Assembly: GCA_044240195.1 (NCBI GenBank)
Contig: JBIHZX010000004.1
Location: 1-58,355, forward strand
Reading direction: 5' to 3'
Source: Candidatus Nanopelagicales bacterium
GTDB lineage: Bacteria; Actinomycetota; Actinomycetes; S36-B12
DNA length: 58,355 nt
A program made the translations under genes and the position numbers. Below, in pieces: positions 1 through 15,458 of this stretch (the first letter of the stretch is position 1; each line of letters opens with the position of its first letter). The notes under the pieces were generated by a model. The model ran no database searches and was not told the DNA's origin. It was given only the letters and a program-made list of their open reading frames with translations.

Positions 1-422
1 CTGAACTTGCGCGGAGCATCAATCTGTCGAATCGATCCCGCCGCCGTTGGGGCGTAATCGGGTTTATTTGATTCAGGTACAGGTGGCTCTTCCACGTGAC
101 CCCCCGCGATATTCGCAGCTCTCGCCTCAACTGCTCCCGGTGCAATGATTGCACTGTCCAGCAATAAATTCTCGGCGCCGTACAGCCACCGACCGTAGTA
201 ACCATCATCGATGTAGTGCTCTCGATCTAGTCGATTCATAGCATGTCTAAAAGCGTCTAGATTTGACCCAGAAATCCTCATTGATAATAGGGCTAAGGCA
301 AAGGCCCGCCCCTCCCACTTCTCAGGAAAGACCGCCTCGTCGGGGTCGATAATCGGGGCTTGTCCCCAACCAGAATCGCCACCCATGTCGGCCACCCCAC
401 TGGCCGGTTGAATTTCTATCAT
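1..422 (-). CDS. nthB: Nitrile hydratase beta subunit (N-terminal part; runs off window edge)
   Basis: Not in ORF track. Manual translation from ATG at 422 (GAGGAGG RBS upstream): MIEIQPASGVADMGGDSGWG...DEAVFPEKWEGRAFAL...NLDAFRHAMNRL...YIDDGYYGRWL, matching NHase beta motifs DMGG, FxxxWEGRAFA, FRHAxxR and YYxRWL. Confidence 0.88.
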   Translation of the reverse strand, partial: MIEIQPASGVADMGGDSGWGQAPIIDPDEAVFPEKWEGRAFALALLSMRISGSNLDAFRHAMNRLDREHYIDDGYYGRWLYGAENLLLDSAIIAPGAVEARAANIAGGHVEEPPVPESNKPDYAPTAAGSIRQIDAPRKF

Positions 423-481
423 CAAACCCTCCTCATCTAGGGAAACCTGACGGCCCCTGAACCTTACGACTAAAGACCTGA

Positions 482-522
482 TGTCTTGTGGGTGTTGAAC
501 AATGTCCAACACCCACAAGACA
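482..522 (-). terminator. 16-bp perfect inverted repeat between the DsrE-family gene and nthB (terminator/attenuator or mRNA-stabilising stem)
   Basis: TGTCTTGTGGGTGTTG (482-497) / CAACACCCACAAGACA (507-522), 7 nt after the stop at 529. Confidence 0.6.
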
Positions 523-528
523 AAGCAA

Positions 529-1017
529 CTACAGGGTCCAGGTGTTCATCTGGAATGCGCCCTCACTCCAAGCTGTCAGGGCGGTGTCGAGCACGTCAAG
601 CGGGTTGAACGGGATAACCCCTGGAATGAGGTCATCTTCGCCGAATCCGTAAAGAGCACCCATCGCAAAGCGACATGCGTAAATCTTCGCGCCTTCTTTC
701 ATGAGCGTCTTGAGCTGCTCATTGATTGCGAGGTGACCTGGGAATGCGGCCATCCCAACACCGGGGTAACCGCGAGTGCCTGAGGCTGCGAGAACTCCGG
801 GTCCGTAGAGGACGATGCTGACTTCGAACCCTTTACGCACCAAACGTGTTGACGTCAACAAGTTGACGAGCAGAACCGATCCTTCGTAAGGAACAGTGTG
901 GATAAAAATGTATGCTTTCTGTCCGGGTTTGGCCTTGATGTCAGGGAATAGTTTTTCCTCTGCATTAAATAGTGACTCTCCGTCTGCCGGTAGAGTTCTG
1001 ATTACGGTTTTTGGCAT
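529..1017 (-). CDS. MSMEG_0572/Sll0783 (NitB-like) DsrE-family protein
   Basis: Motifs HTVPYEGSV, LVRKGFE, LYGPGV, AFPGHLA, IYACRFAMGALYG and PLDVLD. Start placed at ATG 1017 after a GGAGGA RBS. Confidence 0.85.
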   Translation of the reverse strand: MPKTVIRTLPADGESLFNAEEKLFPDIKAKPGQKAYIFIHTVPYEGSVLLVNLLTSTRLVRKGFEVSIVLYGPGVLAASGTRGYPGVGMAAFPGHLAINEQLKTLMKEGAKIYACRFAMGALYGFGEDDLIPGVIPFNPLDVLDTALTAWSEGAFQMNTWTL

Positions 1018-1047
1018 TATTCCTCCATCGTGTTGTGTTGTGTTCAA

Positions 1048-1299
1048 CTAGATCGCCGGTCCCTCCGGCGACGTCTGTTTGGCCCAGTTCTTCCTGTGGC
1101 TTCCGGGCATGGCCACCATGATCCGTCTGCGTAAGCCCCACGGCATGATCCGGTAAATCGGAATGAATACACCGGTCCAAAAAAATTGACCACTCGTGCT
1201 TGGCGTCTCAATTCCGTGATTGCGTGCAACACGTGCTTGTGCATCACGCAATAAATAAAATTGGGCATTCTCGCGCAGCCACTTCGATGGTGATTTCAT
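1048..1299 (-). CDS. Small basic Trp/Arg-rich hypothetical protein
   Basis: ATG overlaps the upstream stop codon (TGATG), implying translational coupling within the operon. Confidence 0.65.
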   Translation of the reverse strand: MKSPSKWLRENAQFYLLRDAQARVARNHGIETPSTSGQFFWTGVFIPIYRIMPWGLRRRIMVAMPGSHRKNWAKQTSPEGPAI

Positions 1300-2642
1300 C
1301 AACGCCCCAACTGCGACGCAACACCCTTTTGGGCAGCCACCGCGATCGGCTCGTTGAGTGCACCTATTGGTGGTGAGTAAACATTTTCCATGGTGGCCAG
1401 GTCATGCAGCGTCAATCCAGCCTTGACCGCTACTCCGAGGAAGTCAGCTCTTTCTTTGATTCCTTCTCCGCCCACCATTTGGGCTCCGATCAGGCGTAGT
1501 GTTCCTTTTTCGGCGATGAGCTTCACTCGGACTTTTTTAACGCCCGGGTAGTAACGAGCTCGTGAAATACCGTCAGCAACCGCCACCACGTGCGGTATGC
1601 CCAACGCATTCGCTGTCACCTCGCCCAGTGCCACTCCGCCGATCATCCACTTCCCAGCCACCATGCCCCAAGGAACATAAACAGGGTTGTACGTTCGGTT
1701 CCCGCCAGCAGCATTAGCGCCGGCCACTTTCCCCTGGGCGTATGCGTGGCTCCCGGTGAGACCTTGGAGCGGTAGGCCGCCGAGGCCGTGGGGAATCTCG
1801 CACACATCACCACTGGCCCAGACGCCGACCGCTGATGTCTGCATGCCCCCGTCAACGATAAGCCCCCCCGTGCTGCCAGTTTTTAATCCAGCCGCGATCG
1901 CCAATTCATTATTGGGGACCTTGTGCGTGGCCACCACAACAAGATCGCATTCAATGTCTCCCCCTGATGTGCGAACTCCACGTACGGCACCTGACTCATC
2001 GCCGAGAAACTCTTCCAAGGTCGTGTTCCAGTGCATGGTGACACCGAGCTCCGTCCATGACTCATGGACGAGTTCGACAATGTCGGGATCTGCCACTTCC
2101 CCGAGCGCCCATGGGTTCGGGTCGATCACATGTGTTTCGATTCCCCGGTGAGCCAGAGCTGTGATCATCTCAACGCCGAGCGGACCCGCCTCAACAACGA
2201 CCGCCTTTTTAACGGTGTCTAGACGTTTATCCCACTCCATTGCCTCACGGATATTCTTCACGTAATAAAGACCATCAAGGTCCCCACCGGGCACTCCCGG
2301 GTTCGCATAGGAGAAACCCGTCGCGATGACGAGAGAGTCGTAGTGCATCGGCTGACCAGATTCGATCTGAATGGTCTTCGATTTTGTGTCTAATGAAGTG
2401 ATCTTCGTCTGGTACCGGATATCAATGCCTGCATCAACGTAAGCCTGCTTATCAGCCAGAAATAGTGCTTCAAAACTTGGAATTTCTTTTCCATGTACGA
2501 AGGGAATTCCGCAGGGGCTGTAGGCAACGTCTTCATTTTCCGTGAAGACGGTAACTGATGCCGAGGGGTCCACTGCTTTGGCACCACCGGCGGCGCCGAG
2601 TCCCGCGCCTCCGCCTCCGATGACGATAATATGCTGTGCCAC
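1299..2642 (-). CDS. FAD-dependent pyridine nucleotide-disulfide oxidoreductase (NADH oxidase/CoA-disulfide reductase type, single Cys)
   Basis: GGGGAG FAD motif, YSPCG redox Cys, ATG motif, GD motif, C-terminal YSPP dimerisation motif. Confidence 0.88.
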   Translation of the reverse strand: MAQHIIVIGGGGAGLGAAGGAKAVDPSASVTVFTENEDVAYSPCGIPFVHGKEIPSFEALFLADKQAYVDAGIDIRYQTKITSLDTKSKTIQIESGQPMHYDSLVIATGFSYANPGVPGGDLDGLYYVKNIREAMEWDKRLDTVKKAVVVEAGPLGVEMITALAHRGIETHVIDPNPWALGEVADPDIVELVHESWTELGVTMHWNTTLEEFLGDESGAVRGVRTSGGDIECDLVVVATHKVPNNELAIAAGLKTGSTGGLIVDGGMQTSAVGVWASGDVCEIPHGLGGLPLQGLTGSHAYAQGKVAGANAAGGNRTYNPVYVPWGMVAGKWMIGGVALGEVTANALGIPHVVAVADGISRARYYPGVKKVRVKLIAEKGTLRLIGAQMVGGEGIKERADFLGVAVKAGLTLHDLATMENVYSPPIGALNEPIAVAAQKGVASQLGR

Positions 2643-2770
2643 TTATGCTCCCGTCAATTAAAAAGTTAAGATCCTTAGACATACACGATAGACTACTTTT
2701 CATACACTATGTTGAATAATCCAAAAAAAGTTCATAAGCTTTTTTTACCGGTTTTGGGCACCAAACACCC

Positions 2771-3421
2771 ATGAATCAACGAAGGGATGTCCCAGTGGCG
2801 CGCACCTCCACTAAAAGTGAAACCGCAATAAAGCCGAAATCGGATCAGCCCCTCGAGCTCGACGAAATCGTCAGCCTGATCGGTCCAAAAATTGCAGGAT
2901 TGCGCAAGGCTCAGGGCCTATCCCTTCAGCAACTCGCTTCGACGAGTGACGTCTCGGCCGCTGCAATTCATAAGATTGAACGCAGTGGGATGGTCCCCAC
3001 GGTGACAACGCTTCTGAAGTTGGCGGGTGCACTTGGGGTGCCGGTGAGCTACTTCGTTGCCGAAGACGACCCGCACCCTGAATCCGTACACCTCACCAAA
3101 TCTGAATCCCGGAGACCCGTTTATACGCCACATGATGGTCTCGCCCTAGGTGGCATCAGTGGGTCCTACCGCCAGTTTCAAGCGGCGGCAGCAGTCGCAA
3201 GTATGTCGGCGGGAGCAAATAGTGGTGTCAAACTACTCAAGCATCCAGGGGAAGAGTTGGTTTACGTACTAAGCGGGCGGGTTCGCTTTACCGTCGGTAA
3301 TGATGAGTACGCCCTCAAAGCAGGGGATTCCTTACACTTCAGGGGGGATGTGCCGCATCACTGGGAAAATTTAGGCAAGGTGACTGCCCAGTTGATCTGG
3401 CTCGCTTTGAGAAATGGCTAA
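2771..3421 (+). CDS. XRE-family HTH + cupin transcriptional regulator
   Basis: LRKAQGLSLQQLA...IHKIERS...PTVTTLLKLA HTH; HPGEELVYVLSG...GDSLHF...PHHWEN cupin. Confidence 0.9.
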   Translation: MNQRRDVPVARTSTKSETAIKPKSDQPLELDEIVSLIGPKIAGLRKAQGLSLQQLASTSDVSAAAIHKIERSGMVPTVTTLLKLAGALGVPVSYFVAEDDPHPESVHLTKSESRRPVYTPHDGLALGGISGSYRQFQAAAAVASMSAGANSGVKLLKHPGEELVYVLSGRVRFTVGNDEYALKAGDSLHFRGDVPHHWENLGKVTAQLIWLALRNG

Positions 3422-3429
3422 TAGTTGTG

Positions 3430-3828
3430 TCAATTCCCCCGATTGACAACGCTAATCTCCGGTAATGCTTTCAACGTATTAGTCACGTAGCACACACGCT
3501 CGGCTGATGCAATGAGTTTGGCGGCGGTCTCCTCGGGGACCGGAATTCTCACACTGATCTGAATTTGGCTGAACCTGGTTCCTTCATACGTGCCCGTCAC
3601 ATCCACTTCAATACTTGATAATTCCAGATCTCTTTTACGGGCCGCATATGCAAGTGACAGTACGAAGCACGATGCCACAGCGCTCAGTAGCAGATCTGTC
3701 GGCGCAGGACCTGTGTCCGTGCCCCCTACCCGAACAGGTTCATCGACCCGAGACGAAAACTCGCCGGCCATCACGTCAACTTGAAAGCCACCAAGCCATC
3801 GTGCGGACACCAATCGATCTGCAACCAT
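3430..3828 (-). CDS. OsmC-family protein
   Basis: DEP..GGTDTGPAPTDLLLSAVASC and AERVCYVTNTL two-Cys pattern. Confidence 0.85.
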   Translation of the reverse strand: MVADRLVSARWLGGFQVDVMAGEFSSRVDEPVRVGGTDTGPAPTDLLLSAVASCFVLSLAYAARKRDLELSSIEVDVTGTYEGTRFSQIQISVRIPVPEETAAKLIASAERVCYVTNTLKALPEISVVNRGN

Positions 3829-3919
3829 GTAATCCACCTCATATAATTCATCTCCACTTAACTACTATGGATTTACATTAAAGTATACAAATGCCAGTCA
3901 CGGCCGGTATTGTTTTCGC

Positions 3920-5005
3920 GTGGACCGCACTCGAATCCGTGAACTTTTTTTTCTGTTCCTTGCCGTAGCCGCGCTCAATATCGCTGGGTGGGGGACATAC
4001 GCCTATTACTTACATGCTGAACCAACTAATACTGCCTATGTGGGAGTAGGGCTAGTGGCGTACGTCTTAGGGATAAGACATGCCTTTGATGCGGACCACA
4101 TCGCAGCGATTGATGACAGTGCAAGATTGATGGTCAACCAGGGACGTCGACCGATTGGTTTAGGGTTCTACTTTGCAATCGGCCACTCGACAGTGGTCTT
4201 GCTGATGTGTGTGGGAGTGAGTGTTCTCGCCGGAACCTTCGTCTCGTCCGGCCAAATCTATCTGCAAGATATTGGTGGCCGGATCGCCGCTCTGGTGGCG
4301 GCCATTTTTCTCTTAGGCGTCGGGCTTTTAAACTTTAAGGTTTTACAACGGCTTCGAAATACCAAACGAGATCTGAAAAGCGGTGCCATTAGCCCTGCTG
4401 AGTTGGAATCCCGTCTCTCTGGCGCATCGCCACTTGCTCGACTCCTTGGTGGCAAAAAGATGAACCGGCTGCAATCAAGTTGGCAGATGTTTCCCATTGG
4501 TTTCATCTTTGGACTCGGCCTTGAGACTGCTTCAGAAGTCACGCTACTCAGCCTCTCCGCCGCGGGTGCCGCGGATGGTCACCTACCAATTGGCGCCATT
4601 CTCGCTTTGCCCCTTTTGTTTGCGGCAGGTATGACGCTGTGTGATTCCATCGATTCGGTCACCATGGTTCATGCCTACAGTTCAGCAAGCACGACGGCAC
4701 ACGACCGACTGTTTTTTAACATTCTCATGACGGGAATCACAGCGACAATCGCGACATTTGTTGGGGCGATCTACCTCTCGCAGGTTCTCGTCGATGAAGT
4801 TGGAATCCGCGTTCTCGAACCAATCGCCCAAATAAATGAGCATTTTGAAAGACTGGGTTACGTCATTGTTTCCGTCTATTTTGTCGTGTGGGCGTGTGCA
4901 TTTTGGGTGTGGCGTAGATCAAAGAAACGAGCCGAGTCCGATGTCGTTGGCGAGTACCGCAGGGCCATAAGTGCGCCGTATGCCAAGTCCAGTCCTGATG
5001 AGTGA
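3920..5005 (+). CDS. NiCoT (HoxN/HupN/NixA/NhlF family) Ni/Co permease
   Basis: Signature RHAFDADHIAAID, FAIGHSTVV, GFIFGLGLETASE, LFAAGM; multiple TM helices. Confidence 0.92.
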   Translation: MDRTRIRELFFLFLAVAALNIAGWGTYAYYLHAEPTNTAYVGVGLVAYVLGIRHAFDADHIAAIDDSARLMVNQGRRPIGLGFYFAIGHSTVVLLMCVGVSVLAGTFVSSGQIYLQDIGGRIAALVAAIFLLGVGLLNFKVLQRLRNTKRDLKSGAISPAELESRLSGASPLARLLGGKKMNRLQSSWQMFPIGFIFGLGLETASEVTLLSLSAAGAADGHLPIGAILALPLLFAAGMTLCDSIDSVTMVHAYSSASTTAHDRLFFNILMTGITATIATFVGAIYLSQVLVDEVGIRVLEPIAQINEHFERLGYVIVSVYFVVWACAFWVWRRSKKRAESDVVGEYRRAISAPYAKSSPDE

Positions 5006-5724
5006 CCCAGCTCCGCGAGGCGGGCGCGGGATGCGCGCGCTGCTCCTTCCTGTCCGTGAGAGCATTCCTGCAAAAGAGTGTGAAGTGTTTCAATCGACTG
5101 CCCTACCGCAGCCCACCTCAGAAATGCGCGCGAAATCTCATGGGTAGCTGCAGTACGCGCGATCTCCTGGCGAATCACCCGGTTATGACCACCAAGTATC
5201 GATTCCACTGCAAGAATTCCCGCTGCGACATCGTCACCTGCTGGCGTTAATCCAATCCCGCGGCCCATGACCGATTCGCAGGCACCGGCGAGATCACCCA
5301 CTTGCAAGAAACCCGCCAGTTCTTCCTCCAATAATTCTTCCTCCAATAAGTGGCCCGGTGGTGTACCTAAAGTGAGATCGGGAACGTGTCCCAACACGGT
5401 TCCAAGAAGTCCGGTCGCTCGTTTAATATCCGGATTCGCCGCGGGTACCCACACATGCTCAGAGACGGACACGACTTGATCGACCACGCGCAATTCTCCA
5501 TCGCGTACTTCTACCGGATCGCCTAAGGAACCCAGAGGCAAAGTGTTCATTCGGGCATGGAGGGGGCCCGAAGGGACGCTAGCGAGGGTGAGTGCGAAGA
5601 CGTGTGCGCCTACTCGGATATACATCGCCTTTCGAAAGCTCGCAATGACCCGGCCCGCCGAGCTTTTGTGAAGCCCTTCGAGGACTCCCTCCCCCGTGTC
5701 AAGGGGAAGGGTCACTCCGTTCAT
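4876..5724 (-). CDS. DUF2877 (YlbF/AllH-like) protein
   Basis: GRGIGLTPAGDD and GHSSGLD motifs; coupled to the DUF1116 gene. Confidence 0.85.
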   Translation of the reverse strand: MNGVTLPLDTGEGVLEGLHKSSAGRVIASFRKAMYIRVGAHVFALTLASVPSGPLHARMNTLPLGSLGDPVEVRDGELRVVDQVVSVSEHVWVPAANPDIKRATGLLGTVLGHVPDLTLGTPPGHLLEEELLEEELAGFLQVGDLAGACESVMGRGIGLTPAGDDVAAGILAVESILGGHNRVIRQEIARTAATHEISRAFLRWAAVGQSIETLHTLLQECSHGQEGAARASRARLAELGHSSGLDLAYGALMALRYSPTTSDSARFFDLRHTQNAHAHTTK

Positions 5725-7145
5725 TCCCCTTGATTAACAGGGTTAACAAGGTCAACAAGGGCTTGCCCAAACCCTTCAAGCGGCGCCGTCGCAACGCCAG
5801 CCCCTATCTGCCCTACCCCTGACGAAAGATGAAGAATTCCCGTGGTGACCTTGGGGCTAATTCCCGTCTCAACCACTTTTCGCACATCGACGCCGAGTGG
5901 GGTGCCTCGAAAGCTCATCGTCGGCAATTTGAATCGGCTGCTTTCTGACACACATATCCGTCTCATGTCTTCGGTGGCCCGGGCAGCATCAGACATCGAC
6001 CCACCGAGAAAAGCCGCCACCGCTGGAGACCCTGCAGCAGCAGCCCCTCCAAGCCCAATCAGCTCGAGTACCGCACTGTCGCCCATATCAAGAGCAGCAT
6101 CTTGGGAACTGAAACCTGCGTAATACAACGCATCTGCCACCGGAGGAGCCGGACAAATATGCCAACGGGGTGAATCCCCCACCTTCACCCCAAAAGTGGT
6201 CCCGTTGCGCGCCATGGTCGTGACAATCGTTGAACCAGATACTTGCTCCGCTGCGAGCATCAGTGATTTTGCCGCCGCCATAGCAATTGTCAGGAAGAAG
6301 AGGTGATTCTTGGACAAATAATGAGCGAACGCCACCGAGCCTTCATCATTTCCCAATCGGGCAATTGATGTGAGCACATCGCGGATTAAAAGATTTGTCG
6401 TCGCCTGCGTACGCATGTGAACGTCGTCGCCCATCTGCACGCCCTGTGATGCTAAGGACAGGATGTCAATCGGACCACTTTCTGTGAGGATCTGTGCGAT
6501 TCTCGGCTGGGCAACATCCCGCAAGAAGATCAGCCTTTCTATCGCCGCTGGTGTCTCACGCCCAAACCACGGAACGTCCCCCGGACCCTGGTTGACGGGC
6601 GCGAATCCAACTGTCCCGGACTCCGCATTCTCAGCTATCCACACCGGGGTCGTAGGTCCGATGGCTGAAGCCATCGGTACCACGGTCCCATGATCATTGG
6701 CGGCAGCAAGTGCGACGGAGCCCTCGGCGAGCAATCGATCGGCTGTTTCAACGTCTTTCGCCCACCCTTCCGCAACTGTTGCAGCGCGCATCGATCGTCG
6801 TACCGGATCACATACGAATTCATAAGCAATGGGTGGACCGGCATGCAGCAGGGTGCGATCGGGGAGTGCAGGCAATGCATCCCGTGCGGACGCCACTCCA
6901 ATGAGCATCGGCACCCCCTTGTCAATCCTGCGAATTGCCTCGGCATTCGCCTTGTCGTATTCCAGTGAATTCATCGCGTAAGAATCAGTGAGTGCCCTGA
7001 GAAGAACCGGTGAATTTCCCGAAGGAACGCGCCAGTCCACGTGAATCACCTCAGCGTCTTGTTCACGGATCGCCTCCGCGAACAGTGGCAGTCCAATGTT
7101 GATTACTGCCGCGTTCTGTGGCAACTTATGCAGGGTTGTTTCCAT
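5721..7145 (-). CDS. DUF1116 (YlbE/AllG-like) protein with an N-terminal FdrA-C-terminal-like segment
   Basis: LLHAGPP, MGDDVHMR, TMARNGTTFG, DMGDSA, GVGQIGAG motifs; N-terminal VINIGL...VIHVDWR. Confidence 0.87.
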   Translation of the reverse strand: METTLHKLPQNAAVINIGLPLFAEAIREQDAEVIHVDWRVPSGNSPVLLRALTDSYAMNSLEYDKANAEAIRRIDKGVPMLIGVASARDALPALPDRTLLHAGPPIAYEFVCDPVRRSMRAATVAEGWAKDVETADRLLAEGSVALAAANDHGTVVPMASAIGPTTPVWIAENAESGTVGFAPVNQGPGDVPWFGRETPAAIERLIFLRDVAQPRIAQILTESGPIDILSLASQGVQMGDDVHMRTQATTNLLIRDVLTSIARLGNDEGSVAFAHYLSKNHLFFLTIAMAAAKSLMLAAEQVSGSTIVTTMARNGTTFGVKVGDSPRWHICPAPPVADALYYAGFSSQDAALDMGDSAVLELIGLGGAAAAGSPAVAAFLGGSMSDAARATEDMRRICVSESSRFKLPTMSFRGTPLGVDVRKVVETGISPKVTTGILHLSSGVGQIGAGVATAPLEGFGQALVDLVNPVNQGE

Positions 7146-7162
7146 ATTCTTGACTCACTTCC

Positions 7163-8617: not shown

Positions 8618-9611
8618 TTTTGGCTACCACGCTTTCACGGCTGCCCGTCACGGTAAGTGATTCAATCGCCGCCGGCAATCCTCCTGTTAGCCACCACACA
8701 ACAGTGTCATTGGACTCACGGGTTATCCGAGAAATTTCGTCGTAAGTCGGGAGACCGTATGCCGGGTCGAGAAGAATTCCAACTCGCCGGAATGCTTCAT
8801 CGCGTGCAAACGCACCATTTTTATCTAGCTCGTGATCATGGGATCCCGCTGCGTCAATGATGGTGACATTGGTCATCGATGGTGCCCCTCGTCCCAAAAG
8901 TTTCGAGGTTTGCGTTGACAAGTCAGTAATGACTCCACGCATCTCATCCACATTTCGGCTTACTGACACCCCAACAACTTTCCACATCGCGCCCAAGAAA
9001 TCACTGCCTGCAAGGAATCCTGCAATCGATGCACCGGACCCAACGGGAAGCACCACGCTTACTTGATTGGGATCGGTCCCCCTCGCGTTGCATTGCTCAT
9101 GCAGTTCAATTGCTGCTCTGGCAAAGCCCAAGCCACCCACTGCAGTGGCACCGCCGCGGGGAACGGGGTACGGCACTTGGCCATCGGCCGCTAGCTCCGC
9201 TGCCCGCCGTTCAACCTGTTCATTTATCACCGAGCGGTCTAGCCCGGTGAAGTGAATTACCGCTCCAGTCGCCTGCGCTACTAACAAAGGTACGGGCCAC
9301 ACATCCATGGGATTTCCTGCCACTTCGATTTCACAATCGAGGCCGACTGCCGCTGCCGCATGCGCACAAGCTCCAATAAAATTAGATCCTGCCGCTCCAC
9401 CGGTAATGACAACATTGGAGTCGCATTTGAGCGCGTCCGCCATGAGATATTCCAGTGGCCTTACTTTGTTGCCGGCCAGCCCGAAACCCGTGAGGTCGTC
9501 GCGTTTGAGAAGCACGGGCGCAGCCGCGTCGAACTGCCACGGCGCCGCGAGGTGCAGGGCTGTCGGAAATTGACCCAGGTGAGTTCGAGGAATTCGATCA
9601 GTCGGATTCAC
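8610..9611 (-). CDS. PLP-dependent D-cysteine desulfhydrase/ACC deaminase family enzyme (XcbE-like candidate)
   Basis: LKRDDLTGFGLAGNKVR (PLP lysine), PRGG, GSGAS, LLDPAY, WLTGG. Confidence 0.85.
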   Translation of the reverse strand: MNPTDRIPRTHLGQFPTALHLAAPWQFDAAAPVLLKRDDLTGFGLAGNKVRPLEYLMADALKCDSNVVITGGAAGSNFIGACAHAAAAVGLDCEIEVAGNPMDVWPVPLLVAQATGAVIHFTGLDRSVINEQVERRAAELAADGQVPYPVPRGGATAVGGLGFARAAIELHEQCNARGTDPNQVSVVLPVGSGASIAGFLAGSDFLGAMWKVVGVSVSRNVDEMRGVITDLSTQTSKLLGRGAPSMTNVTIIDAAGSHDHELDKNGAFARDEAFRRVGILLDPAYGLPTYDEISRITRESNDTVVWWLTGGLPAAIESLTVTGSRESVVAKNV

Positions 9612-10981
9612 TGGCGCCCATTTCGATCAGTGACAGACTGGGTTTCGATCAGTGACAGGCAGTGGTCGATAAGGGGACCGGTGGTGGGCTCGGCACTCAT
9701 CCACTCGAGCACGATTTCCGGTGACACGTTGGCTGCTGCGGCAATCAATGCTGCAATCGACTGAATATCTTCGGTCCCATCTCTTTCAGAGAGAGCCACC
9801 TGCATCAATCCCTGTGCCTGATGTTTGCCCATCTGTGAAGATAGAGCCCGCAGAACCGACTCTGTGTTTCCCGTGCCTGAGGATTCGAGATTGCGTAGCA
9901 TCTTCTCCGGATGAACGCGCAGCCCAGCAACAAGTTCTGCCGCCACGCTAGCTGACTTGCCTGTGCACATGGCGACCTCGGGCAACATGGCCCACTCGGC
10001 TTTCCAGCTTCGGCCATCTCGTTCATGACTGGACACGACACCCTCAACAAGAACTCCTGCCGCGGCACGCGCTATCCGCGACAAGGTGTCCAGGTGCTCA
10101 CTCAATTCCGGGTTTTGCTTGTGCGGCATGGTGATGCTACCGACTGCGTTGACATCTCTTGGTTCGCTGAGTTCACCAATTTCTGGTCGAGCCAACTCGT
10201 AGATTTCGTTGCCGATCCGAGCAAGTGATGATGCCACCGTCGCCATGGTTGTCCCGAATTCTGCGATCCTGTCTCGGGTGGCCGTCCATGACATACCAGG
10301 GTCACCCAGTGCGAGGAGTTCGCAAAATCTGCTCCGTAGTTCCAAGCCCTGATCGGGAAAAAAAGCGAGTCCGCCGGTCGACCCGGCGAGCTGCCCCACG
10401 CTCCACCGCGCCCGCGCCCCGTCAATCCGTTCTATGTGACGATTAATCTCGTCCGCCCACGTTGACACTTTGAATCCGAATGTCACCGGTGTACCCGGTT
10501 GGCCATGGGTGCGCCCAGCAATTGGAGTGTCGCGGTGTTTTTTTGCCAATTCCACACACGAATCACGTAGCTTCACAAGGTCCGCACGGATTAAGTCACC
10601 GCTATCGCGCATGATCATGCCAAACCAGGTATCTGTCAGGTCTTGAACCGTAATTCCAAAGTACACGTACTCTCTGGACGAACTATCGAGAATCTGCTGC
10701 AGTCCACGGATGAGTCCCAGAGTCGAGTGTGATGTTCGCCGGGTTTCCGAACTGATGAAATCTTCATCCAGTAATTCCACCCGTGCTTTGCTCGCGATAC
10801 CCTCGAATGCAGCGTCGGGGATAATTCCCAGTTCGGCTTGGGCTTGTGCCAACGCCACGAGAATATTGAGCCAAGCCTGCAGTCGATGCTTCTGATCAAA
10901 CATTCGATCGTAATCAGGTGTACTCCATCCATGTGCATACATGGATGAAGCGGTCAAACGGTTGTCCACGCCGGGTCCCAT
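9608..10981 (-). CDS. Adenylosuccinate-lyase-like aspartase/fumarase superfamily protein (XcbD-like candidate)
   Basis: GRTHGQ, TFGFK, RDR, GSITMPHKQNPE, HERD motifs. Confidence 0.85.
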   Translation of the reverse strand: MGPGVDNRLTASSMYAHGWSTPDYDRMFDQKHRLQAWLNILVALAQAQAELGIIPDAAFEGIASKARVELLDEDFISSETRRTSHSTLGLIRGLQQILDSSSREYVYFGITVQDLTDTWFGMIMRDSGDLIRADLVKLRDSCVELAKKHRDTPIAGRTHGQPGTPVTFGFKVSTWADEINRHIERIDGARARWSVGQLAGSTGGLAFFPDQGLELRSRFCELLALGDPGMSWTATRDRIAEFGTTMATVASSLARIGNEIYELARPEIGELSEPRDVNAVGSITMPHKQNPELSEHLDTLSRIARAAAGVLVEGVVSSHERDGRSWKAEWAMLPEVAMCTGKSASVAAELVAGLRVHPEKMLRNLESSGTGNTESVLRALSSQMGKHQAQGLMQVALSERDGTEDIQSIAALIAAAANVSPEIVLEWMSAEPTTGPLIDHCLSLIETQSVTDRNGRQ

Positions 10982-11880
10982 GCACGTGCCAATTCATTGA
11001 TCGCTTCACGGATGTCAGCCAAAGATGCACCCCATGGCACGATCACCCGGCCGTTCTCAATTTCTATTGACTCCTCGAGGAGACAGCACTTTGTAATTGT
11101 TGCCATTCCCGAGGATTCTTCGCGTTCCCTTGGGCAGAAGGACACCATCGGCGGGCGGTCGCCATAGAACCACTCATGTATTTGTGCGGATCGTTCACAT
11201 CCGACCATGGTCCAATCTTCGCGATCGGGACGTTGGTCTAGGTAGGAAGTGCGGGCACCATCAATTTCCGTGTCAGCGCCCCGGCAGGGAAGGAGGTAGT
11301 GCCCACTCGGAATTTTCGATCCAAACGAATCTAACGTCAATGCATCGAGATGCGCGACTATCGGGGGTAGGTCTTCGGCCACCTCGAGGAGCCGGCACAC
11401 CTGATCAAACAGTTTCGCGGGAGTCGGGGGGATTACTTCAGTGACGTTGATGTTTAGTGGTTGTGGGTTGAGAATAAAACTGACGTGGGAGTACAGACCT
11501 TCAACAACGACGGCCTTCGCTTGAGGGGCGTAATTCGCTGCGGCGCGCGCTAGATTGGACGGGACTGCCGTGTCAATGCTCGCATCGGCGACGAAGGAGC
11601 ACTCAGTCGGATCTGCCAGGATCTCGACACTCGTCACGGGCGAAAAGAGTGGCACCGGGTCCGCCCTCTGGACCGCTGCCAGCCAAACCCCATTCGGCTC
11701 ATGGACCACGATGAAGCGAGTTCGTCGGTACACCTCTCTACCGGTGAAGTATTCAGTGAGCGACTCCCATGTGAAAGAGTCTGTGGAGTGGGACACGGAG
11801 ACACCTCGGTAGGCGCTGGGAACCACATTCATGCGAGATCGAAGAAGGACGTGACCTGAATCTGTCCTGGTTTCGGTCAC
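10954..11880 (-). CDS. Hypothetical protein with Cys-rich C-terminus (possible metal/Fe-S binding)
   Basis: 308-aa ORF coupled to both neighbours; LPCR, VGCERS..IH, FCPR, TKCC. Confidence 0.75.
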   Translation of the reverse strand: MTETRTDSGHVLLRSRMNVVPSAYRGVSVSHSTDSFTWESLTEYFTGREVYRRTRFIVVHEPNGVWLAAVQRADPVPLFSPVTSVEILADPTECSFVADASIDTAVPSNLARAAANYAPQAKAVVVEGLYSHVSFILNPQPLNINVTEVIPPTPAKLFDQVCRLLEVAEDLPPIVAHLDALTLDSFGSKIPSGHYLLPCRGADTEIDGARTSYLDQRPDREDWTMVGCERSAQIHEWFYGDRPPMVSFCPREREESSGMATITKCCLLEESIEIENGRVIVPWGASLADIREAINELARAWDPAWTTV

Positions 11881-12662
11881 CTGCGCACTCCTGAGGATTG
11901 GGAAATGCCAACGGCAACCAACGCGGTATCTGCGCGCAGTCCTAAACGAAGAGTTTGTAAGGGAAGTAGATCCTCGGGCGCGACGTTGCCCACATTCACT
12001 TCTGGTCCATGTGTATTGATGAACCAGGCTTGTTGATCTTTTCGAGGCGCCTCAAAAAGCACGCGATCGAGCCCTGCCGCCAGCAATGCCGCGTCGATGA
12101 CTTCAGTTTGTGGAGTCCCGTGGGAGTCATAAACACCAACGGTCCCACTCTCCCGTCCTTCAGCCACAATGTATTCGGCACCAGCAACCAAGTCGCCCGT
12201 GATTTCCGAATGCCATTGAGTTGGGGTGAGAATTCGTTCGGCACTCTTGTACCCGGTTTCGGCAAATACTCGAAATGACCGCGCCGATGTGCGAATGAGT
12301 TCCCACTTTTCTTCCATGCTCATATCTGCCACACCTCGAGAAACCTCAACCGCTGTGAATCCGGCCTGTTCCGCCCAATTGAGGCATTCACTTACACGTC
12401 CCTGCGACCAAGCGATCTCCAACAATGTGCCTCCGAGGCAGGCTGTGATCCCGTGTTCGCGTAGGAGTCCAATTTTTGACGCCAAATGTTTCTCTACATA
12501 AGCAGTCCCCCAACCGAACTTCCACACATCGGCAAACTCCGCGTACGAAGCCAGTTGGCTTTCCATCGATCCAAGTGAAATTCCCTTATCCAGCACGTGT
12601 GTCAGCCCGATGGAGCGTGGCTTCTCAGGCAGAACCGGAAGGCTCAGGAAATTGTTCGACAT
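11877..12662 (-). CDS. comA: Phosphosulfolactate synthase (ComA/XcbB)
   Basis: GLTHVLDKG, KFGWGT, GGTLLE, EGRESG, FEAP, NVGN, LRLGLRADT. Confidence 0.92.
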   Translation of the reverse strand: MSNNFLSLPVLPEKPRSIGLTHVLDKGISLGSMESQLASYAEFADVWKFGWGTAYVEKHLASKIGLLREHGITACLGGTLLEIAWSQGRVSECLNWAEQAGFTAVEVSRGVADMSMEEKWELIRTSARSFRVFAETGYKSAERILTPTQWHSEITGDLVAGAEYIVAEGRESGTVGVYDSHGTPQTEVIDAALLAAGLDRVLFEAPRKDQQAWFINTHGPEVNVGNVAPEDLLPLQTLRLGLRADTALVAVGISQSSGVRR

Positions 12663-12678
12663 GTGTCCTATACTACGC

Positions 12679-12714
12679 GTACTTTCACTTTACGACATAT
12701 CTACCCGTGAATAT
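12679..12714. promoter_or_regulatory. Divergent promoter with AC-N9-AC-N9-AC array (possible GlnR site)
   Basis: AC at 12681, 12692 and 12703 (11-bp phasing) between comA and the AIR-synthase-like gene. Confidence 0.3.
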
Positions 12715-12745
12715 TCTGCGCATTGTTACTACATTGGAGGACTCC

Positions 12746-13753
12746 ATGGGCCCGAAGAGCACTGCCCGACAACAACTTGATGACGTTGCAGCAGCTGTGG
12801 CAGGTAATAGCGCCATTGCGGCCAAGCGCGAAATAGGTCTCGTCAGCGAGGCCTTAGGGTCGTCGGGTTTCGTCGAGGGTCCCGGGGATGACGGCGCGGC
12901 CATCGCGATTGGTCACACACTAGGAATCGTGTGCGGAGAAGCAATGTGGCCACCATTTGTCGCAGCAGACCCCCGCGGGGCTGGAATAGCCGCAATTCTT
13001 GCCAACGTAAACGACGTTGCTGCGATGGGTGGCCTGCCCTTGGCAATTGTTGACACCATAGCTGCGGATGAAGCCACCGCGCGTGAAATTCTCAGCGGTC
13101 TGGCCTACGCCTCGTCCTTGTACCGAGTTCCCATTGTTGGCGGACACCTCACGCTCACAGATGGGCAGCCCAGTTTGTCTGCATTTGCGCTCGGCCACAC
13201 TGACAAACTTTTATCGACCACGAATGTTATGGCAGGTCAAGATCTTGTCGTGGCCGCGTGCATTGAAGGATCAATGCATCCAAAATTCCCGTTCTTTGCT
13301 TCATTTACTGAACGAGGCGACAGTCTCGGTGATGACGTGCGTCTTCTGGCACAGATTGCCAAAGATGGCATTGCTGTCGCCGCCAAGGACATCAGCATGG
13401 CCGGGCTTATCGGCTCACTGGCCATGCTCTTGGAGTGGGGGTCCTTCGGTGCAGAGCTCAACCTCGACGTGCTCCCAAGGCCTGAAGGTGTCTCGCTGGC
13501 TGACTGGTGCAACTGTTTCCCATGCTTTGGGTTCATCCTGTGCTGTGAACCATCCAGAACTAATGAATGCCTCGAAGTTTTCACTCGCACCGGACTCGCA
13601 GCCGCCAAAGTTGGGTCCATAAATGGCTCGGGCAGCATCGAGATCCTCGCTGGCGGAGAGCGCCGAGAGGTTCTGAATTTGCTTGAGGATACGGTCACGG
13701 GCTTAGTTCGTTCCCCTAGCAACACCGCAGCAGTTCCCCTGAAAAACATCTAA
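12746..13753 (+). CDS. AIR synthase-related protein (PurM/SelD/HypE superfamily; Sll0787/NitF-like)
   Basis: GPGDDGAA, ANVNDVAAMGG, IVGGH, AKDISMAGLIGS motifs. Start at ATG 12746 after GGAGG; the ORF-track start at 12476 overlaps comA. Confidence 0.87.
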   Translation: MGPKSTARQQLDDVAAAVAGNSAIAAKREIGLVSEALGSSGFVEGPGDDGAAIAIGHTLGIVCGEAMWPPFVAADPRGAGIAAILANVNDVAAMGGLPLAIVDTIAADEATAREILSGLAYASSLYRVPIVGGHLTLTDGQPSLSAFALGHTDKLLSTTNVMAGQDLVVAACIEGSMHPKFPFFASFTERGDSLGDDVRLLAQIAKDGIAVAAKDISMAGLIGSLAMLLEWGSFGAELNLDVLPRPEGVSLADWCNCFPCFGFILCCEPSRTNECLEVFTRTGLAAAKVGSINGSGSIEILAGGERREVLNLLEDTVTGLVRSPSNTAAVPLKNI

Positions 13754-13874
13754 TTTTTTCGTTTTTTTTACGTCAAAATATCGAATTGGCTGACTTCGGG
13801 GTCCGAAATGTGTACTTTTGTGTACACATCAAGTCGTATGATGAATATGCGGCTTACAATCATTGGAGATGAGA

Positions 13875-14405
13875 ATGCCCCCTATTACAATGGTGTTCAT
13901 AATTACAGGACTTGCAGTCTTCACGCAAGCGATGTTCTTTCTTGGCATCGGAGCAAGTGCTGAGGAAGGTAAAAAGAGCCCGATTATCCCAGTTGGATAC
14001 ATTTCTGTAATCGCAGGAATCGTCGACCTGGTTGTCGGTATTTACATTACCGTGGTTCGGCCAATAGAAGATGATCCTTCACTGCTGCTGGCTGGCCTTA
14101 TCGGATTCTACGGTCTGTTCTTCATTGCCTTAGGACTCGCCGAAATTCTGGGCCTTGACCTTCGGGTTATCGGCAATCTAGCTATCCCAACCGCGATCCT
14201 TCCGCTGTTTTGGATTAACTTCTTCTCGGGTAGCACAACCTTTACGTTGATTCTTATCTGGTGGGTCATCGCATTCCTCTCCATTACGTTGACCACGTAC
14301 GGGAAGTTGCAAGCACGGGCCTTGGGAGTCATCTTGATGCTCACCGCGCTCTTCACATTCTTCCTCGTTCCAGTATTCCTAGTCATGGGTTGGAACCTGC
14401 CTTAA
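13875..14405 (+). CDS. AmiS/UreI-like urea/amide channel
   Basis: About 175 aa, six hydrophobic helices, GLDLRVIG motif resembling AmiS/UreI; nitrile hydratase context. Confidence 0.6.
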   Translation: MPPITMVFIITGLAVFTQAMFFLGIGASAEEGKKSPIIPVGYISVIAGIVDLVVGIYITVVRPIEDDPSLLLAGLIGFYGLFFIALGLAEILGLDLRVIGNLAIPTAILPLFWINFFSGSTTFTLILIWWVIAFLSITLTTYGKLQARALGVILMLTALFTFFLVPVFLVMGWNLP

Positions 14406-14412
14406 TCGCTGA

Positions 14413-14476
14413 CGCCTCCGACTGTTCGCTCTCTTATCTGATGGCACAGTCTTATCTGATAGCACAGTCGGAGGCG
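14413..14476. repeat. 13-bp inverted repeat enclosing an 18-bp tandem duplication
   Basis: CGCCTCCGACTGT / ACAGTCGGAGGCG; CTTATCTGATGGCACAGT (14433-14450) and CTTATCTGATAGCACAGT (14451-14468). Confidence 0.75.
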
Positions 14477-14578
14477 CTTCGGCTCATTGTTTCGCTGTAG
14501 CTTGGATCAATTACCCGTAATTTGTTAGGGTGATGCAAACGAGGATGCGGCTCACCCCGAAACATTGATGCACATAGA

Positions 14579-14618
14579 TGAAACCCGGTTACTTCCGTGA
14601 GGAGGTAACCGGGTTTCA
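14579..14618 (-). terminator. Intrinsic terminator hairpin downstream of the fasciclin gene
   Basis: TGAAACCCGGTTACTTCC-GTGA-GGAGGTAACCGGGTTTCA. Confidence 0.7.
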
Positions 14619-14662
14619 GAATTTCTTAGTGAACAATAATTGCTGAACTTAAATTATTGAAC

Positions 14663-15259
14663 TTACGGCATTGTCAGTGCAGCAACATCGACATCTGCTG
14701 GGACGAGCACAGCATCGATTACGTGGATAACACCGTTGCTAGCAAGAACATCTGCGGTAACAACATTGGCTCCGTTAACAGTGACACCGTTTGCTGTCGA
14801 GAGAGTTACGTTCTGTCCTTCAACGGTCGCAACGTCACCGTCGGCGATGTCGGCAGCAAGAACTGTTCCTGGAACAACGTGGTAGGTCAGAATCTTGGTA
14901 AGTGCATCAATGTTCTCTGGAAGCAACAGTGCGTCAAGAACACCTGCTGGAAGTGCTGCGAAAGCCGCATTTGTTGGCGCGAACACGGTGAAGGGGCCTT
15001 CGCCACTCAGTGTTTCGACCAAGCCAGCGGCAGTGACTGCAGCGACCAATGTGCTGAAATCTGGATTTGATACAGCAACGTCAACAATTGTCCCGACGCT
15101 GACCTCTCCGACCATTTCATTAGCTTCTTCAACTGCAGACTCTTCAACGGCAGCGCTTGATTCAGTTGTTGCTTCTTCTGATGTGCTGCTGCATGCTGAC
15201 AAAGTCAGTGCTGCTGCAACTGCTACTACCGCAATTGCGGTGCGACGCATTACTCGCAT
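14663..15259 (-). CDS. Fasciclin (FAS1) domain lipoprotein, MPT83-like
   Basis: Lipobox LSAC; [39 protein letters not shown]. Start at ATG 15259 after AAGGAG. Confidence 0.92.
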
Positions 15260-15458
15260 TTTTTTCTCCTTGATATTGGGAATTATTTTCAGAAATGTGA
15301 TAGCAAGCAACAAATTGAATTTCGGCAAACGCAAACATGGTTAATTACTTAAAGTTAATCAAATTTCCACAATTTGATCCGTTTTCACGATTAAATTCGA
15401 GCGAAAAAGTGACATGAAACACAAGGTGCTGTTCCGTTACCTTCTTATTATTAGGTGT

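Follow-up and report, generated by a model that had tools for sequence, protein, structure and literature searches.

Why should an actinobacterium of lake water encode the synthesis of coenzyme M (CoM) amid genes akin to those for nitrile and cyanide use? The roles of CoM so far lie in methane and alkane metabolism in archaea and in epoxide metabolism in bacteria. The question is raised by positions 1–14405 of a stretch of 58,355 bases from Candidatus Nanopelagicales bacterium (GenBank assembly GCA_044240195.1, contig JBIHZX010000004.1), here called the window, which is the complete contig C132 of an assembly of 1.93 Mb in 139 contigs, 93.5% complete. An earlier note on this DNA had proposed a link between CoM and nitrile hydratase (NHase). 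We find that one half of this proposal stands, namely the association of CoM genes with genes like those of the cluster known as Nit1C, and that the other half falls, NHase as a conserved partner being replaced elsewhere by an Amidohydro_2 protein or a Nit6803 nitrilase. Judging from gene content and its conservation, we lean toward reading the region as a variant of the Nit1C "nitrogen starvation / cyanide assimilation" type with its own CoM supply, encoding one pathway of which CoM would be the thiol. Genomes, contigs, loci and families are denoted below by G, C, L and f numbers, the genome of the window being G000.

Gene identities at 1–14405 were assigned from Pfam and NCBIfam scans and a listing of open reading frames (ORFs), and they agree with 15 of the 16 calls in the earlier note. 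At the center stands a minus-strand run of seven genes, comA-xcbA-xcbD-xcbE-xcbC-allG-allH, which is as tightly packed as that note had it: consecutive ORFs from comA to xcbC overlap by 4–28 bases, a gap of 17 bases separates xcbC from allG, and allG and allH overlap by 4 bases. By family membership, this predicted operon joins the complete bacterial-type CoM pathway (ComA, XcbC, XcbD, XcbE, and XcbA) to allG-allH. In the bacterial route as set out in the portions of Wu et al. (2022; PMC9457059) used here, XcbB (ComA) makes phosphosulfolactate, XcbC eliminates phosphate from it to give sulfoacrylate, XcbD adds cysteine to sulfoacrylate, the pyridoxal phosphate (PLP) enzyme XcbE yields sulfoethanethioaldehyde, and XcbA, a [2Fe-2S] protein without known homologues, reduces this aldehyde to CoM.

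Each of these steps has a counterpart in the window. ComA (11877–12662) matches the phosphosulfolactate synthase family PF02679 with 252.6 bits against a cut-off of 25.2, and TIGR03849 with 226.8 bits, under the cut-off of 280. The Cys-rich protein of the XcbA family (DUF7714; 10954–11880) scores 335.6 bits with NF052538 (cut-off 150) and 301.9 bits with PF24830, and all 12 aligned sequences, XcbA of Xanthobacter Py2 among them, share the cysteines C199, C228, C249, C265, and C266. The three remaining enzymes, which the earlier note had called PurB-like, DcyD-like, and ArgH-like, are an XcbD-like member of the adenylosuccinate lyase family (9608–10981), an XcbE-like PLP enzyme of the D-cysteine desulfhydrase family (8610–9611), and an XcbC-like lyase of the aspartase/fumarase superfamily (7163–8617). 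Each has the corresponding Xcb family as its best match, yet falls short of the narrow NCBI "exception" cut-offs (NF052536, 544.4 against 600 bits; NF052537, 205.2 against 450; NF052535, 416.4 against 575). Identity to the characterised Py2 proteins is 34–42% (XcbC 37%, XcbD 42%, XcbE 37%). From what is known of these families, we infer that the product is CoM or something very closely akin to it.

The window holds the larger part of an accessory cluster of about 24 genes. Its left edge cuts the gene for NHase beta, of which the N-terminal part (3–518, minus strand; PF21006, 85.1 bits) runs off the contig end onto contig C23 (5,076 bases), the complete protein having about 259 residues; the end of C23 and the start of the window have 127 bases in common. 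C23 encodes the C-terminal half of NHase beta (PF02211, 96.7 bits), NHase alpha, an NHase accessory protein, a family 4 glycosyltransferase (GT4) of the MSMEG_0565 type, FdrA, and carbamate kinase. The junction is real, because G001, G002, and G003 each have all 21 genes collinear on one contig (42–98% protein identity), with NHase beta at full length. Beyond carbamate kinase in G001 and G002 come unk225 (217 residues), the radical SAM protein MSMEG_0568 (TIGR04043, 382.5 bits against a cut-off of 303.7), and the GNAT protein MSMEG_0567 (TIGR04045, 88.4 against 68.45). In the window's own assembly, contig C108 opens with a partial GNAT gene, the only trace of it, and the radical SAM gene is missing, which is most simply explained by an assembly gap. 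Thus, of the genes that the earlier note had thought might lie left of position 1, NHase alpha is found on C23 and a radical SAM gene further left in G001 and G002, and an amidase is not, as there is none in the cluster beside NHase. From left to right the full cluster reads GNAT, radical SAM, unk225, carbamate kinase, FdrA, and glycosyltransferase; NHase accessory protein, alpha, and beta, a DsrE-like protein (DsrE0572), a small basic protein (small84), a flavoprotein like CoA-disulfide reductase (CoADR), an XRE-cupin regulator, OsmC, and the nickel/cobalt transporter NiCoT; and AllH, AllG, XcbC, XcbE, XcbD, XcbA, ComA, an AIR-synthase-like protein, and a membrane protein.

The likeness to Nit1C (nitBCDEFGH; Podar 2005; Pseudomonas cyanotrophs; Synechocystis sll0783–0787; M. 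smegmatis MSMEG_0565–0572) lies in the DsrE-like NitB homologue, a putative NitF-type AIR-synthase-like gene, and the MSMEG_0565 glycosyltransferase, to which relatives of the window add the NitD radical SAM and NitE GNAT genes, a fragment of the latter being seen on C108. The window's NitB (MSMEG_0572/Sll0783; 529–1047, minus strand) matches TIGR04044 with 199.9 bits against a cut-off of 109.85 and has one cysteine, C125, which all 17 aligned homologues share. In other respects the two cluster types differ. A cobalt NHase stands here where Nit1C has the Nit6803 nitrilase; NitG (MSMEG_0570; TIGR04042) has no match in the window's genome up to an E-value of 10; and the flavoprotein here is CoADR-like, whereas NitH is monooxygenase-like according to the literature, NitH itself (TIGR04046) lying outside the searches made. 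The regulator is of the XRE-cupin type here, whereas Nit1C has the sigma-54 regulator NitA. Nine genes are added (five xcb genes and those for AllG, AllH, FdrA, and carbamate kinase), as are OsmC, XRE-cupin, and unk225; classical Nit1C lacks AllFGH.

How widely is this combination kept? Eleven genome loci with XcbA were found, all in metagenome-assembled genomes of Actinomycetota, several of them Nanopelagicales, and these are syntenic as far as the contigs reach. In a sample of the phylum, XcbA scores above the cut-off in 10 of 400 other genomes, with eight matches among the 21 genomes of family f16 and one each in f23 and f11; within the window's own order the figure is 19 of 200 other genomes. 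Six genomes of the phylum sample, from families f16 and f23, have long flanks (G298, G099, G127, G113, G181, and G326), and all six carry comA-xcbA-D-E-C beside AllG, the set flavoprotein-small84-DsrE0572, and the XRE-cupin gene. AllH was found by tblastn in three of the six, OsmC in four, and carbamate kinase, FdrA, the MSMEG_0565 glycosyltransferase, or the AIR-synthase-like gene within the fetched range in four. Their gene order is unlike that of the window, and identity ranges from 34% to 72% across matches. By comparison with G099, whose scans supplied the family names, G113, G127, and G326 have radical SAM, GNAT, Amidohydro_2, and unk225 genes in common with it. G272 shows the same cluster start on a contig of 9 kb; G168, G259, and G352 were left unjudged since their contigs are too short.

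The same association appears beyond assembled genomes of the phylum. A metagenome sample consisting of the best 80 of 454 XcbA relatives, found with an XcbA alignment, includes 35 loci of at least 10 kb, of which 34 have at least one cluster gene other than xcb, as do all 17 loci of at least 15 kb. The cultured alphaproteobacterial methanotroph Methylocystis iwaonis carries the gene set in about 21 kb of plasmid pSS37A-Re-1 (NZ_AP027143.1). Genes for an FAD-dependent oxidoreductase, a small hypothetical protein, MSMEG_0572, DUF1116, the MSMEG_0565 glycosyltransferase, an FdrA-like "oxidoreductase," and an unk225-like protein are accompanied there by those for a cupin, DUF983, Pnap_2097, sll0787, MSMEG_0567, MSMEG_0568, the Nit6803 nitrilase, and OsmC. 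With them stand the genes for phosphosulfolactate synthase, an XcbA-like protein, an adenylosuccinate-lyase-like protein, a PLP enzyme, and an argininosuccinate-lyase-like protein, that is, ComA-XcbA-D-E-C. The proteins are 34–69% identical to those of the window (flavoprotein 59%), and small84 is present. Judged by homology, the gene set, hydrolase and transporters aside, stays together in two actinobacterial classes, in metagenomes from soil and lakes, and on the Methylocystis plasmid. The co-conservation on which the earlier note had staked its proposal therefore is seen: the comA operon goes with the genes for DsrE0572, the flavoprotein, DUF1116/DUF2877, and the AIR-synthase-like protein across families and phyla, despite shuffling.

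Three loci show unusual arrangements of xcbA. In G584 (C3 30000–46000), a window-type cluster with NHase has no xcbA between comA and xcbD; past the NHase accessory gene, the other strand carries a divergent xcbA, 35% identical to that of the window and scoring 392 bits with the family model, as if the gene had been displaced with its function preserved. The xcbA of G326 reads in two frames (C1 1712229–1713075), and that of G459 has an in-frame TGA and fragments (C4 185169–186034); these are possible frameshifts or decaying copies.

NHase was to be the partner of CoM in the earlier proposal. The enzyme itself is well recognised: the alpha subunit on C23 scores 305.1 bits with TIGR01323 against a cut-off of 249.85, its nearest PDB relatives are cobalt NHases, and it has the motif VCTLCSCY, which we take to mark the cobalt type. 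The possibility that it is a thiocyanate hydrolase was rejected (305 bits with TIGR01323 against 192 with TIGR03887), and the PDB ranking agrees. The accessory protein (TIGR03889, 76.1 against 46) has a His/Asp-rich tail, which together with the cobalt-type alpha subunit fits the NiCoT-family transporter (3920–5005, plus strand; PF03824, 198.2 bits). These traits and the adjacent transporter gene are shared with known cobalt NHases, as in the Rhodococcus association with NhlF. Two differences are that NHase here stands, in predicted co-transcription, behind a flavoprotein like a disulfide reductase and a DsrE-like protein, and that the cluster has no amidase.

NHase is, however, not kept across the clusters. 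Its position is taken by an Amidohydro_2 protein in f16, f23, and f24 and by the Nit6803 nitrilase in Methylocystis. The Amidohydro_2 protein (PF04909; 286 residues) is highly conserved and in the f16 and f23 clusters lies near DsrE0572 with the GNAT, radical SAM, and unk225 genes; no NHase, NiCoT, or 180-residue membrane protein was found in those clusters, and NiCoT occurs only where NHase does, in the freshwater NHase-bearing clusters and not in f16, f23, or f24. Conversely, the genome of the window has no Nit6803 nitrilase (best TIGR04048 match 40.3 bits against 502.6, on another contig), nor was one found in the clusters of G001–G003. Among the metagenome loci, NHase occurs in three (two of them at 71–74% GC) and Amidohydro_2 in two. 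On this comparative evidence, NHase is best described as a lineage-specific module rather than a conserved partner of the CoM genes. Since the hydrolase can be exchanged, the conserved link appears to be that of CoM with the Nit1C core, the AllFGH-like carbamoyltransferase, and the flavoprotein. That three unrelated hydrolases occupy equivalent clusters points to one shared class of substrate.

The carbamoyltransferase is the second conserved partner. The earlier note had listed DUF1116 and DUF2877 proteins, and both are present as called; they are now known as AllG (5721–7145, minus strand; PF06545, 213.4 bits; a homologue of PDB 3clq) and AllH (4876–5724, minus strand; PF11392, 73.3 bits), subunits of an FdrA-type carbamoyltransferase. 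FdrA (NF004760, 399.6 bits, under the cut-off of 433) and carbamate kinase (NF009007, 275.1 against 266) are encoded on C23, so that subunits of one enzyme type stand at opposite ends of the cluster. In E. coli, allFGH encode oxamic transcarbamylase and ybcF (AllK) a catabolic carbamate kinase, according to the sections of PMC11326118 and PMC9843812 on which we draw. The FdrA, DUF1116, and DUF2877 homologues with a carbamate kinase are common to both systems; unlike in E. coli, the genes here are split between two operons at the cluster ends and no allantoin-branch genes accompany them. In 25 of the 28 metagenome loci with enough downstream DNA, allG comes after xcbC on one strand, no more than 600 bases away. 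No Ldh_2 gene (the family of AllD and ComC) was found in any of five cluster genomes by a search whose control was positive in 5 of 14, which argues against oxalurate as the substrate and also against the archaeal sulfolactate route.

The third partner is the flavoprotein (1299–2642, minus strand; Pyr_redox_2, 159.4 bits), which by its sequence belongs to the single-cysteine family of CoADRs, NADH oxidases, and persulfide reductases. Its best NCBIfam match is CoADR (241 bits, far under the cut-off of 578.8), its nearest PDB chains are 6pfz, 3cgb, and the CoADRs, and its single redox cysteine, Cys44 of the motif YSPCGIP, is kept in all 16 sequences aligned. Always between the genes of this flavoprotein and DsrE0572 lies that of small84 (1048–1302, minus strand), a basic protein of 84 residues that has no cysteine and no Pfam or NCBIfam match, and whose ESM Atlas matches are to unannotated actinobacterial clusters only. 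A 15-sequence alignment of small84 has W8, R10, Y16, L17, W42, F46, P48, Y50, P54, W55, R58, P66–H69, and W73 invariant. Small84 is predicted to bind the flavoprotein: the modelled complex scores 0.72, with 0.00 for the best of three controls, the runs share at least 73% of contacts, and the partner has a pLDDT of at least 70. Among solved complexes, 58 of 80 came up to this mark, and among mismatched pairs 2 of 110; as the present prediction used our own alignments, these counts apply only approximately.

Clusters that lack the CoM genes show how these modules relate. MSMEG_0572 is present in 15 of the same 400 genomes; six of these are XcbA-positive clusters, and G220 is a cut f16 cluster. 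Those of G144, G316, G215, and G305 resemble plain Nit1C cores, to which G333 adds Amidohydro_2. The remaining three belong to family f24 (G136, G393, and G338) and combine DsrE0572, unk225, Amidohydro_2, radical SAM, GNAT, the AIR-synthase-like gene, AllG, AllH, carbamate kinase, and FdrA with the glycosyltransferase, OsmC, the flavoprotein, and small84; they contain no xcb gene, and none of the seven f24 genomes in the sample has an XcbA match. Thus, the CoM genes are an add-on module to an already extended Nit1C type and are not universal. All three f24 genomes encode ComA elsewhere, beside ATP sulfurylase and an FAD_binding_2 flavoprotein, and ComA was not found in two classical-type Nit1C genomes tested. 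The lone f24 ComA gene (G136:C1 2687000–2707000; G338:C56 4000–24000) is flanked by the FAD_binding_2 flavoprotein with a LysR regulator and by ATP sulfurylase, and its locus looks like a sulfate-to-sulfite-to-phosphosulfolactate module. Also in f24, genes for a class I/II aminotransferase (L070:1103–2437, plus strand) and a luciferase-like monooxygenase (L070:2450–3451, plus strand; G338) lie between those for carbamate kinase and FdrA, and G144 and G333 have homologues of the monooxygenase (36–37% identity) close to their plain Nit1C cores.

What might such a pathway do? According to the sections of PMC7815647 and PMC11049912 cited here, bacteria need Nit1C to grow with cyanide as a nitrogen source; these sources and PMC1199592, again in part, describe Nit1C nitrilases as best on unsaturated nitriles such as fumaronitrile and poor on cyanide, and call the physiological role of Nit1C unclear. 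We propose that CoM would serve as a dedicated pathway thiol that holds or traps a small nitrogen-bearing electrophile, while the flavoprotein, with small84, would keep CoM reduced by acting on its disulfide or persulfide. Nitrogen could then leave as ammonia by two exits. By the first, the exchangeable hydrolase (NHase, nitrilase, or Amidohydro_2) would add water to a C–N multiple bond or an amide; by the second, FdrA-AllG-AllH would phosphorolyse a carbamoyl group to carbamoyl phosphate, which carbamate kinase would turn into ATP, CO2, and ammonia. The earlier note's idea of CoM as carrier or nucleophile with recycling by the flavoprotein survives in this form as a reading of the gene content.

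Among specific schemes we tentatively favor one with a thiol-bound C1–N unit, S-cyano-CoM or S-carbamoyl-CoM, although its chances of being correct as written are modest. The CoM disulfide or persulfide would trap cyanide to give S-cyano-CoM, or CoM would trap cyanate to give S-carbamoyl-CoM directly; NHase would hydrate S-cyano-CoM to S-carbamoyl-CoM; and the FdrA complex, which resembles succinyl-CoA synthetase, would phosphorolyse the thiocarbamate, formally like the reaction of succinyl-CoA with phosphate. Such a hydration would explain the absence of an amidase beside NHase. A precedent for S-carbamoyl and S-cyano intermediates is the thiocarbamate-to-thiocyanate chemistry of HypF and HypE in [NiFe]-hydrogenase maturation. 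The likeness, a PurM-superfamily enzyme and carbamoyl phosphate metabolism together with a thiol, is a chemical analogy only, and the direction proposed here is reversed (hydration, then phosphorolysis). An alternative in the spirit of the earlier note is a Michael addition of CoM to an unsaturated nitrile.

Several observations weigh against a single CoM-dependent pathway. Ranking of the 80 metagenome loci went by similarity to XcbA of the window and so favors this cluster type, and the examples are mostly from Actinomycetota, so that kin are not independent. A recognisable hydrolase lies within reach in only 5 of the 47 metagenome loci of at least 6 kb (flanks up to 10 kb). In the 45 kb read from Methylocystis, neither carbamate kinase nor AllH was detected, and the nitrilase of that cluster would bypass any carbamoyl intermediate. 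The curated NCBIfam cut-offs are missed by XcbC, XcbD, XcbE, ComA (TIGR03849), FdrA, and the AIR-synthase-like protein; XcbE misses by the widest margin, and the product could therefore be a relative of CoM and not CoM. The f24 clusters without xcb imply that the flavoprotein and the carbamoyltransferase do not strictly depend on CoM encoded in the cluster. Finally, the radical SAM, GNAT, GT4, AIR-synthase-like, and unk225 genes have no place in either scheme, and the NCBI label on such genes is "biosynthetic process," for which reason we retain a biosynthetic reading.

According to that reading, the output of the cluster under nitrogen stress would be a small sulfonated compound, for example a signal, a binder of metal or cyanide, or a novel thiol of low molecular weight. 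CoM or a block derived from sulfoacrylate would come from the xcb enzymes; GT4, GNAT, radical SAM, DsrE, and AIR-synthase-like proteins would tailor the product; carbamate kinase and FdrA-AllG-AllH would run toward carbamoylation; and the hydrolase would trim an intermediate. Such a pathway would account for genes that are idle under a catabolic model, and the NCBI label is attached to the Nit1C glycosyltransferase, radical SAM, AIR-synthase-like, and nitrilase genes alike. The glycosyltransferase resembles MshA and BshA (98.7 and 68.2 bits), a GNAT protein is present as in mycothiol synthesis, and the radical SAM protein is weakly like the sulfur-inserting LipS2; the authors of PMC7815647, in the portion used here, themselves consider a biosynthetic metabolon. 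However, in E. coli the carbamate kinase that accompanies AllFGH works catabolically (PMC9843812 and PMC11326118, in part), the need of Nit1C for growth on cyanide nitrogen (PMC7815647 and PMC11049912, in part) points the other way, and three unrelated hydrolases swapping at one position fit catabolic release better than tailoring. We regard biosynthesis as a serious, if rather improbable, alternative.

A weaker candidate is that CoM is a protective thiol buffer, which together with OsmC and the CoADR-like reductase would counter, for example, peroxide stress or stress caused by cyanide and would merely be co-regulated with the Nit1C pathway. The OsmC/Ohr-family protein (3430–3837, minus strand; PF02566, 72.6 bits) is like a thiol peroxidase, with Cys57 and Cys116, and is kept in most cluster variants, Methylocystis included; both it and a flavoprotein of the disulfide/persulfide reductase family are co-conserved with xcb. 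Overexpressed CoM synthesis genes protect methanogens from oxidative stress (PMC12713407, in the part consulted), and nitB is linked to the cellular redox state in Synechocystis (PMC7815647, likewise in part). Against a buffer, mycothiol genes are already present, on the very contig that bears the CoM cluster, as the earlier note had seen: mshA (25713–26933) and mshD (34115–35029) score 614.5 and 282.8 bits, both above their cut-offs of 462.5 and 163.1. The packing of xcbC against allG in 25 of 28 loci also speaks for a shared pathway rather than loose co-regulation, and the f24 clusters retain the flavoprotein and OsmC without xcb. A purely protective role is thus doubtful.

It is less probable still, and to our minds quite unlikely, that the NHase/NiCoT, xcb, AllFGH/carbamate kinase, and Nit1C units are independent operons lying side by side in an accessory island and doing separate jobs. 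The distribution is indeed patchy, XcbA scoring above the cut-off in two of the seven other genomes of the window's genus, and modules occur in differing combinations, as in f24 without xcb and in classical Nit1C without AllFGH. Yet FdrA and AllG/AllH bracket the other units from opposite ends, and the set is kept, with its order shuffled, at 45–70% protein identity.

There remains the classical role of CoM, and CoM-dependent epoxide metabolism does seem to exist in the window's order, as the gene content of some members suggests. Close relatives of the window in this order are represented by metagenome-assembled genomes from lakes. Five genomes with the higher-scoring XcbA type were fetched from that order (G414, G451, G593, G476, and G584), and in the first four (G414:C3 385000–416000, G451:C23, G593:C41, and G476:C8) comA-xcbA-D-E-C lies beside genes for epoxyalkane:CoM transferase (EaCoMT; 48–75% identity to Py2), 2-KPCC (51–54%), and a CoADR-like flavoprotein. 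That tblastn finds EaCoMT and 2-KPCC in these four genomes indicates that the method recognises alkene-type clusters where they exist; tblastn found no AllG, DsrE0572, or Nit1C genes at these loci. The window's genes share with the Xanthobacter autotrophicus Py2 xcb/epoxide carboxylase system all five biosynthetic genes and the XcbA cysteines, with the plasmids of Nocardioides JS614 and Mycolicibacterium chubuense NBB4 the order comA-xcbA-xcbD-xcbE-xcbC, and with both contexts a CoADR-like flavoprotein beside comA, the alkene-type one being a paralogue 30–33% identical to ours. They differ from the Py2-type system in that no EaCoMT, 2-KPCC, or short-chain dehydrogenase/reductase was found here and in that the operon is fused to allG-allH. 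As the earlier note had reported for the window, no EaCoMT is nearby: no Meth_synt_2 gene (PF01717, the EaCoMT family) was found in G000, G001, G002, G003, or G326 by a search whose control was positive in 9 of 14 genomes, and neither EaCoMT nor 2-KPCC lies beside xcb in any of the 80 metagenome loci. A search for soluble di-iron monooxygenases (PF02332) gave no match, and its control likewise none anywhere. In a tree of 28 taxa (concatenated XcbA, XcbD, and XcbC; 1,159 columns; LG+G4), the alkene-linked JS614, NBB4, and Py2 sequences form one clade (ultrafast bootstrap 97) apart from all Nit1C-linked sequences. Rooting with the paralogues XcbC and XcbD places the alkene-linked sequences basal in the XcbD half and splits them in the XcbC half, which gives no order of age for the alkene and Nit1C types. 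Although every bacterial role of CoM described in the part of PMC9457059 used here lies in alkene or epoxide metabolism, and although the order has such clusters, the separate clade, the lack of these enzymes in the searches above, and a neighborhood conserved across phyla largely refute the notion that the window's CoM genes serve an epoxide or alkene pathway encoded elsewhere with the Nit1C-like neighborhood incidental, which we find hardly credible.

Some features at the margins of the argument complete the picture. The regulator (2771–3421, plus strand), divergent from the flavoprotein operon, joins an XRE-type helix-turn-helix (HTH_3, 46.5 bits) to a cupin domain (Cupin_2, 63.2 bits) and is like PuuR (65.7 bits, under the cut-off); it adjoins the flavoprotein gene in G001, G003, G099, G113, G127, G181, G298, and G326. 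The sll0787/NitF-type AIR-synthase-like gene (ORF 12476–13753, plus strand; TIGR04049, 259.6 bits, under the cut-off of 321.3; AIRS and AIRS_C domains) is divergent from comA and probably starts at the ATG at 12746, which is preceded by GGAGGA. A polytopic membrane protein of 180 residues (13863–14405, plus strand) marks the right-hand cluster end in the freshwater clade and is syntenic in 10 of the 11 genome loci. The earlier note had taken it for an AmiS/UreI-like channel, an identity that finds no support: there is no AmiS_UreI match at E-values up to 0.1, and the sole, sub-threshold match is to DUF981 (20.7 bits against 29, E 4.5e-4). An Rfam scan of window positions 1–16000 at E-values up to 1 gave 0 matches, and the intergenic regions 2630–2785, 3825–3935, and 12650–12760 and the gap between the AIR-synthase-like and membrane protein genes share no convincing 9-mers or inverted repeats. 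Many "lake water metagenome" DNA sequencing runs contain window positions 4800–13800; no RNA run is listed among them. At the right end of the window (58229–58355), the last 60 bases recur in reverse complement on contig C98 (2,679 bases), at a distance of 127 bases from its end; C98 is therefore likely the right-hand neighbor in the assembly graph.

The protein unk225, of about 220 residues (L024:3714–4367, minus strand), is conserved in the extended clusters examined, Methylocystis included. The copy of the window's own genome was not assembled and would lie left of C23. The AlphaFold model of unk225 (pLDDT 86, pTM 0.61) combines a helical bundle with a five-stranded sheet; Foldseek at E-values up to 0.001 gave no PDB match, and there was no Pfam or NCBIfam family and no usable ESM Atlas match.

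On the Methylocystis plasmid, genes for a cytochrome bd oxidase (cydAB; NZ_AP027143.1 206053–208488) lie directly upstream of the flavoprotein-small-DsrE genes. Oxidases of the bd type are cyanide-insensitive, and this neighborhood would fit a cyanide context.

The individual families discussed here are known; what is new is their combination, its breadth, and the replaceable hydrolase. We found no paper that joins CoM synthesis genes, or phosphosulfolactate synthase, with Nit1C, MSMEG_056x, or sll078x in a search that covered sources other than subscription journals and supplements. CoM of bacteria is otherwise known from only a few degraders of alkenes and epoxides. The CoM pathway emerges as a standing part of another, widespread cluster, with at least 454 XcbA relatives in metagenomes, many of them in soil-like high-GC contigs and in lake Actinomycetota, which points to a role of CoM outside methane and alkene metabolism. 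It is conceivable, though on balance improbable, that CoM has a third physiological role as the carrier thiol of a Nit1C pathway in soil and lake Actinomycetota and some methanotrophs, where it would capture cyanide or cyanate. What Nit1C does is a question that has stood since 2005, although the cluster is essential for growth on cyanide, as the excerpts of PMC1199592 and PMC7815647 used here have it, and a dedicated thiol cofactor with a matching reductase and an exit through carbamoyl phosphate offers a concrete, testable chemistry for it, for which Methylocystis iwaonis SS37A-Re is a cultured, non-pathogenic carrier. If this chemistry is true, nitrogen assimilation from cyanide or cyanate would yield ATP via carbamate kinase. 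For lake ecology, our findings suggest that streamlined Actinomycetota may devote about 24 kb to scavenging an unrecognised source of nitrogen.

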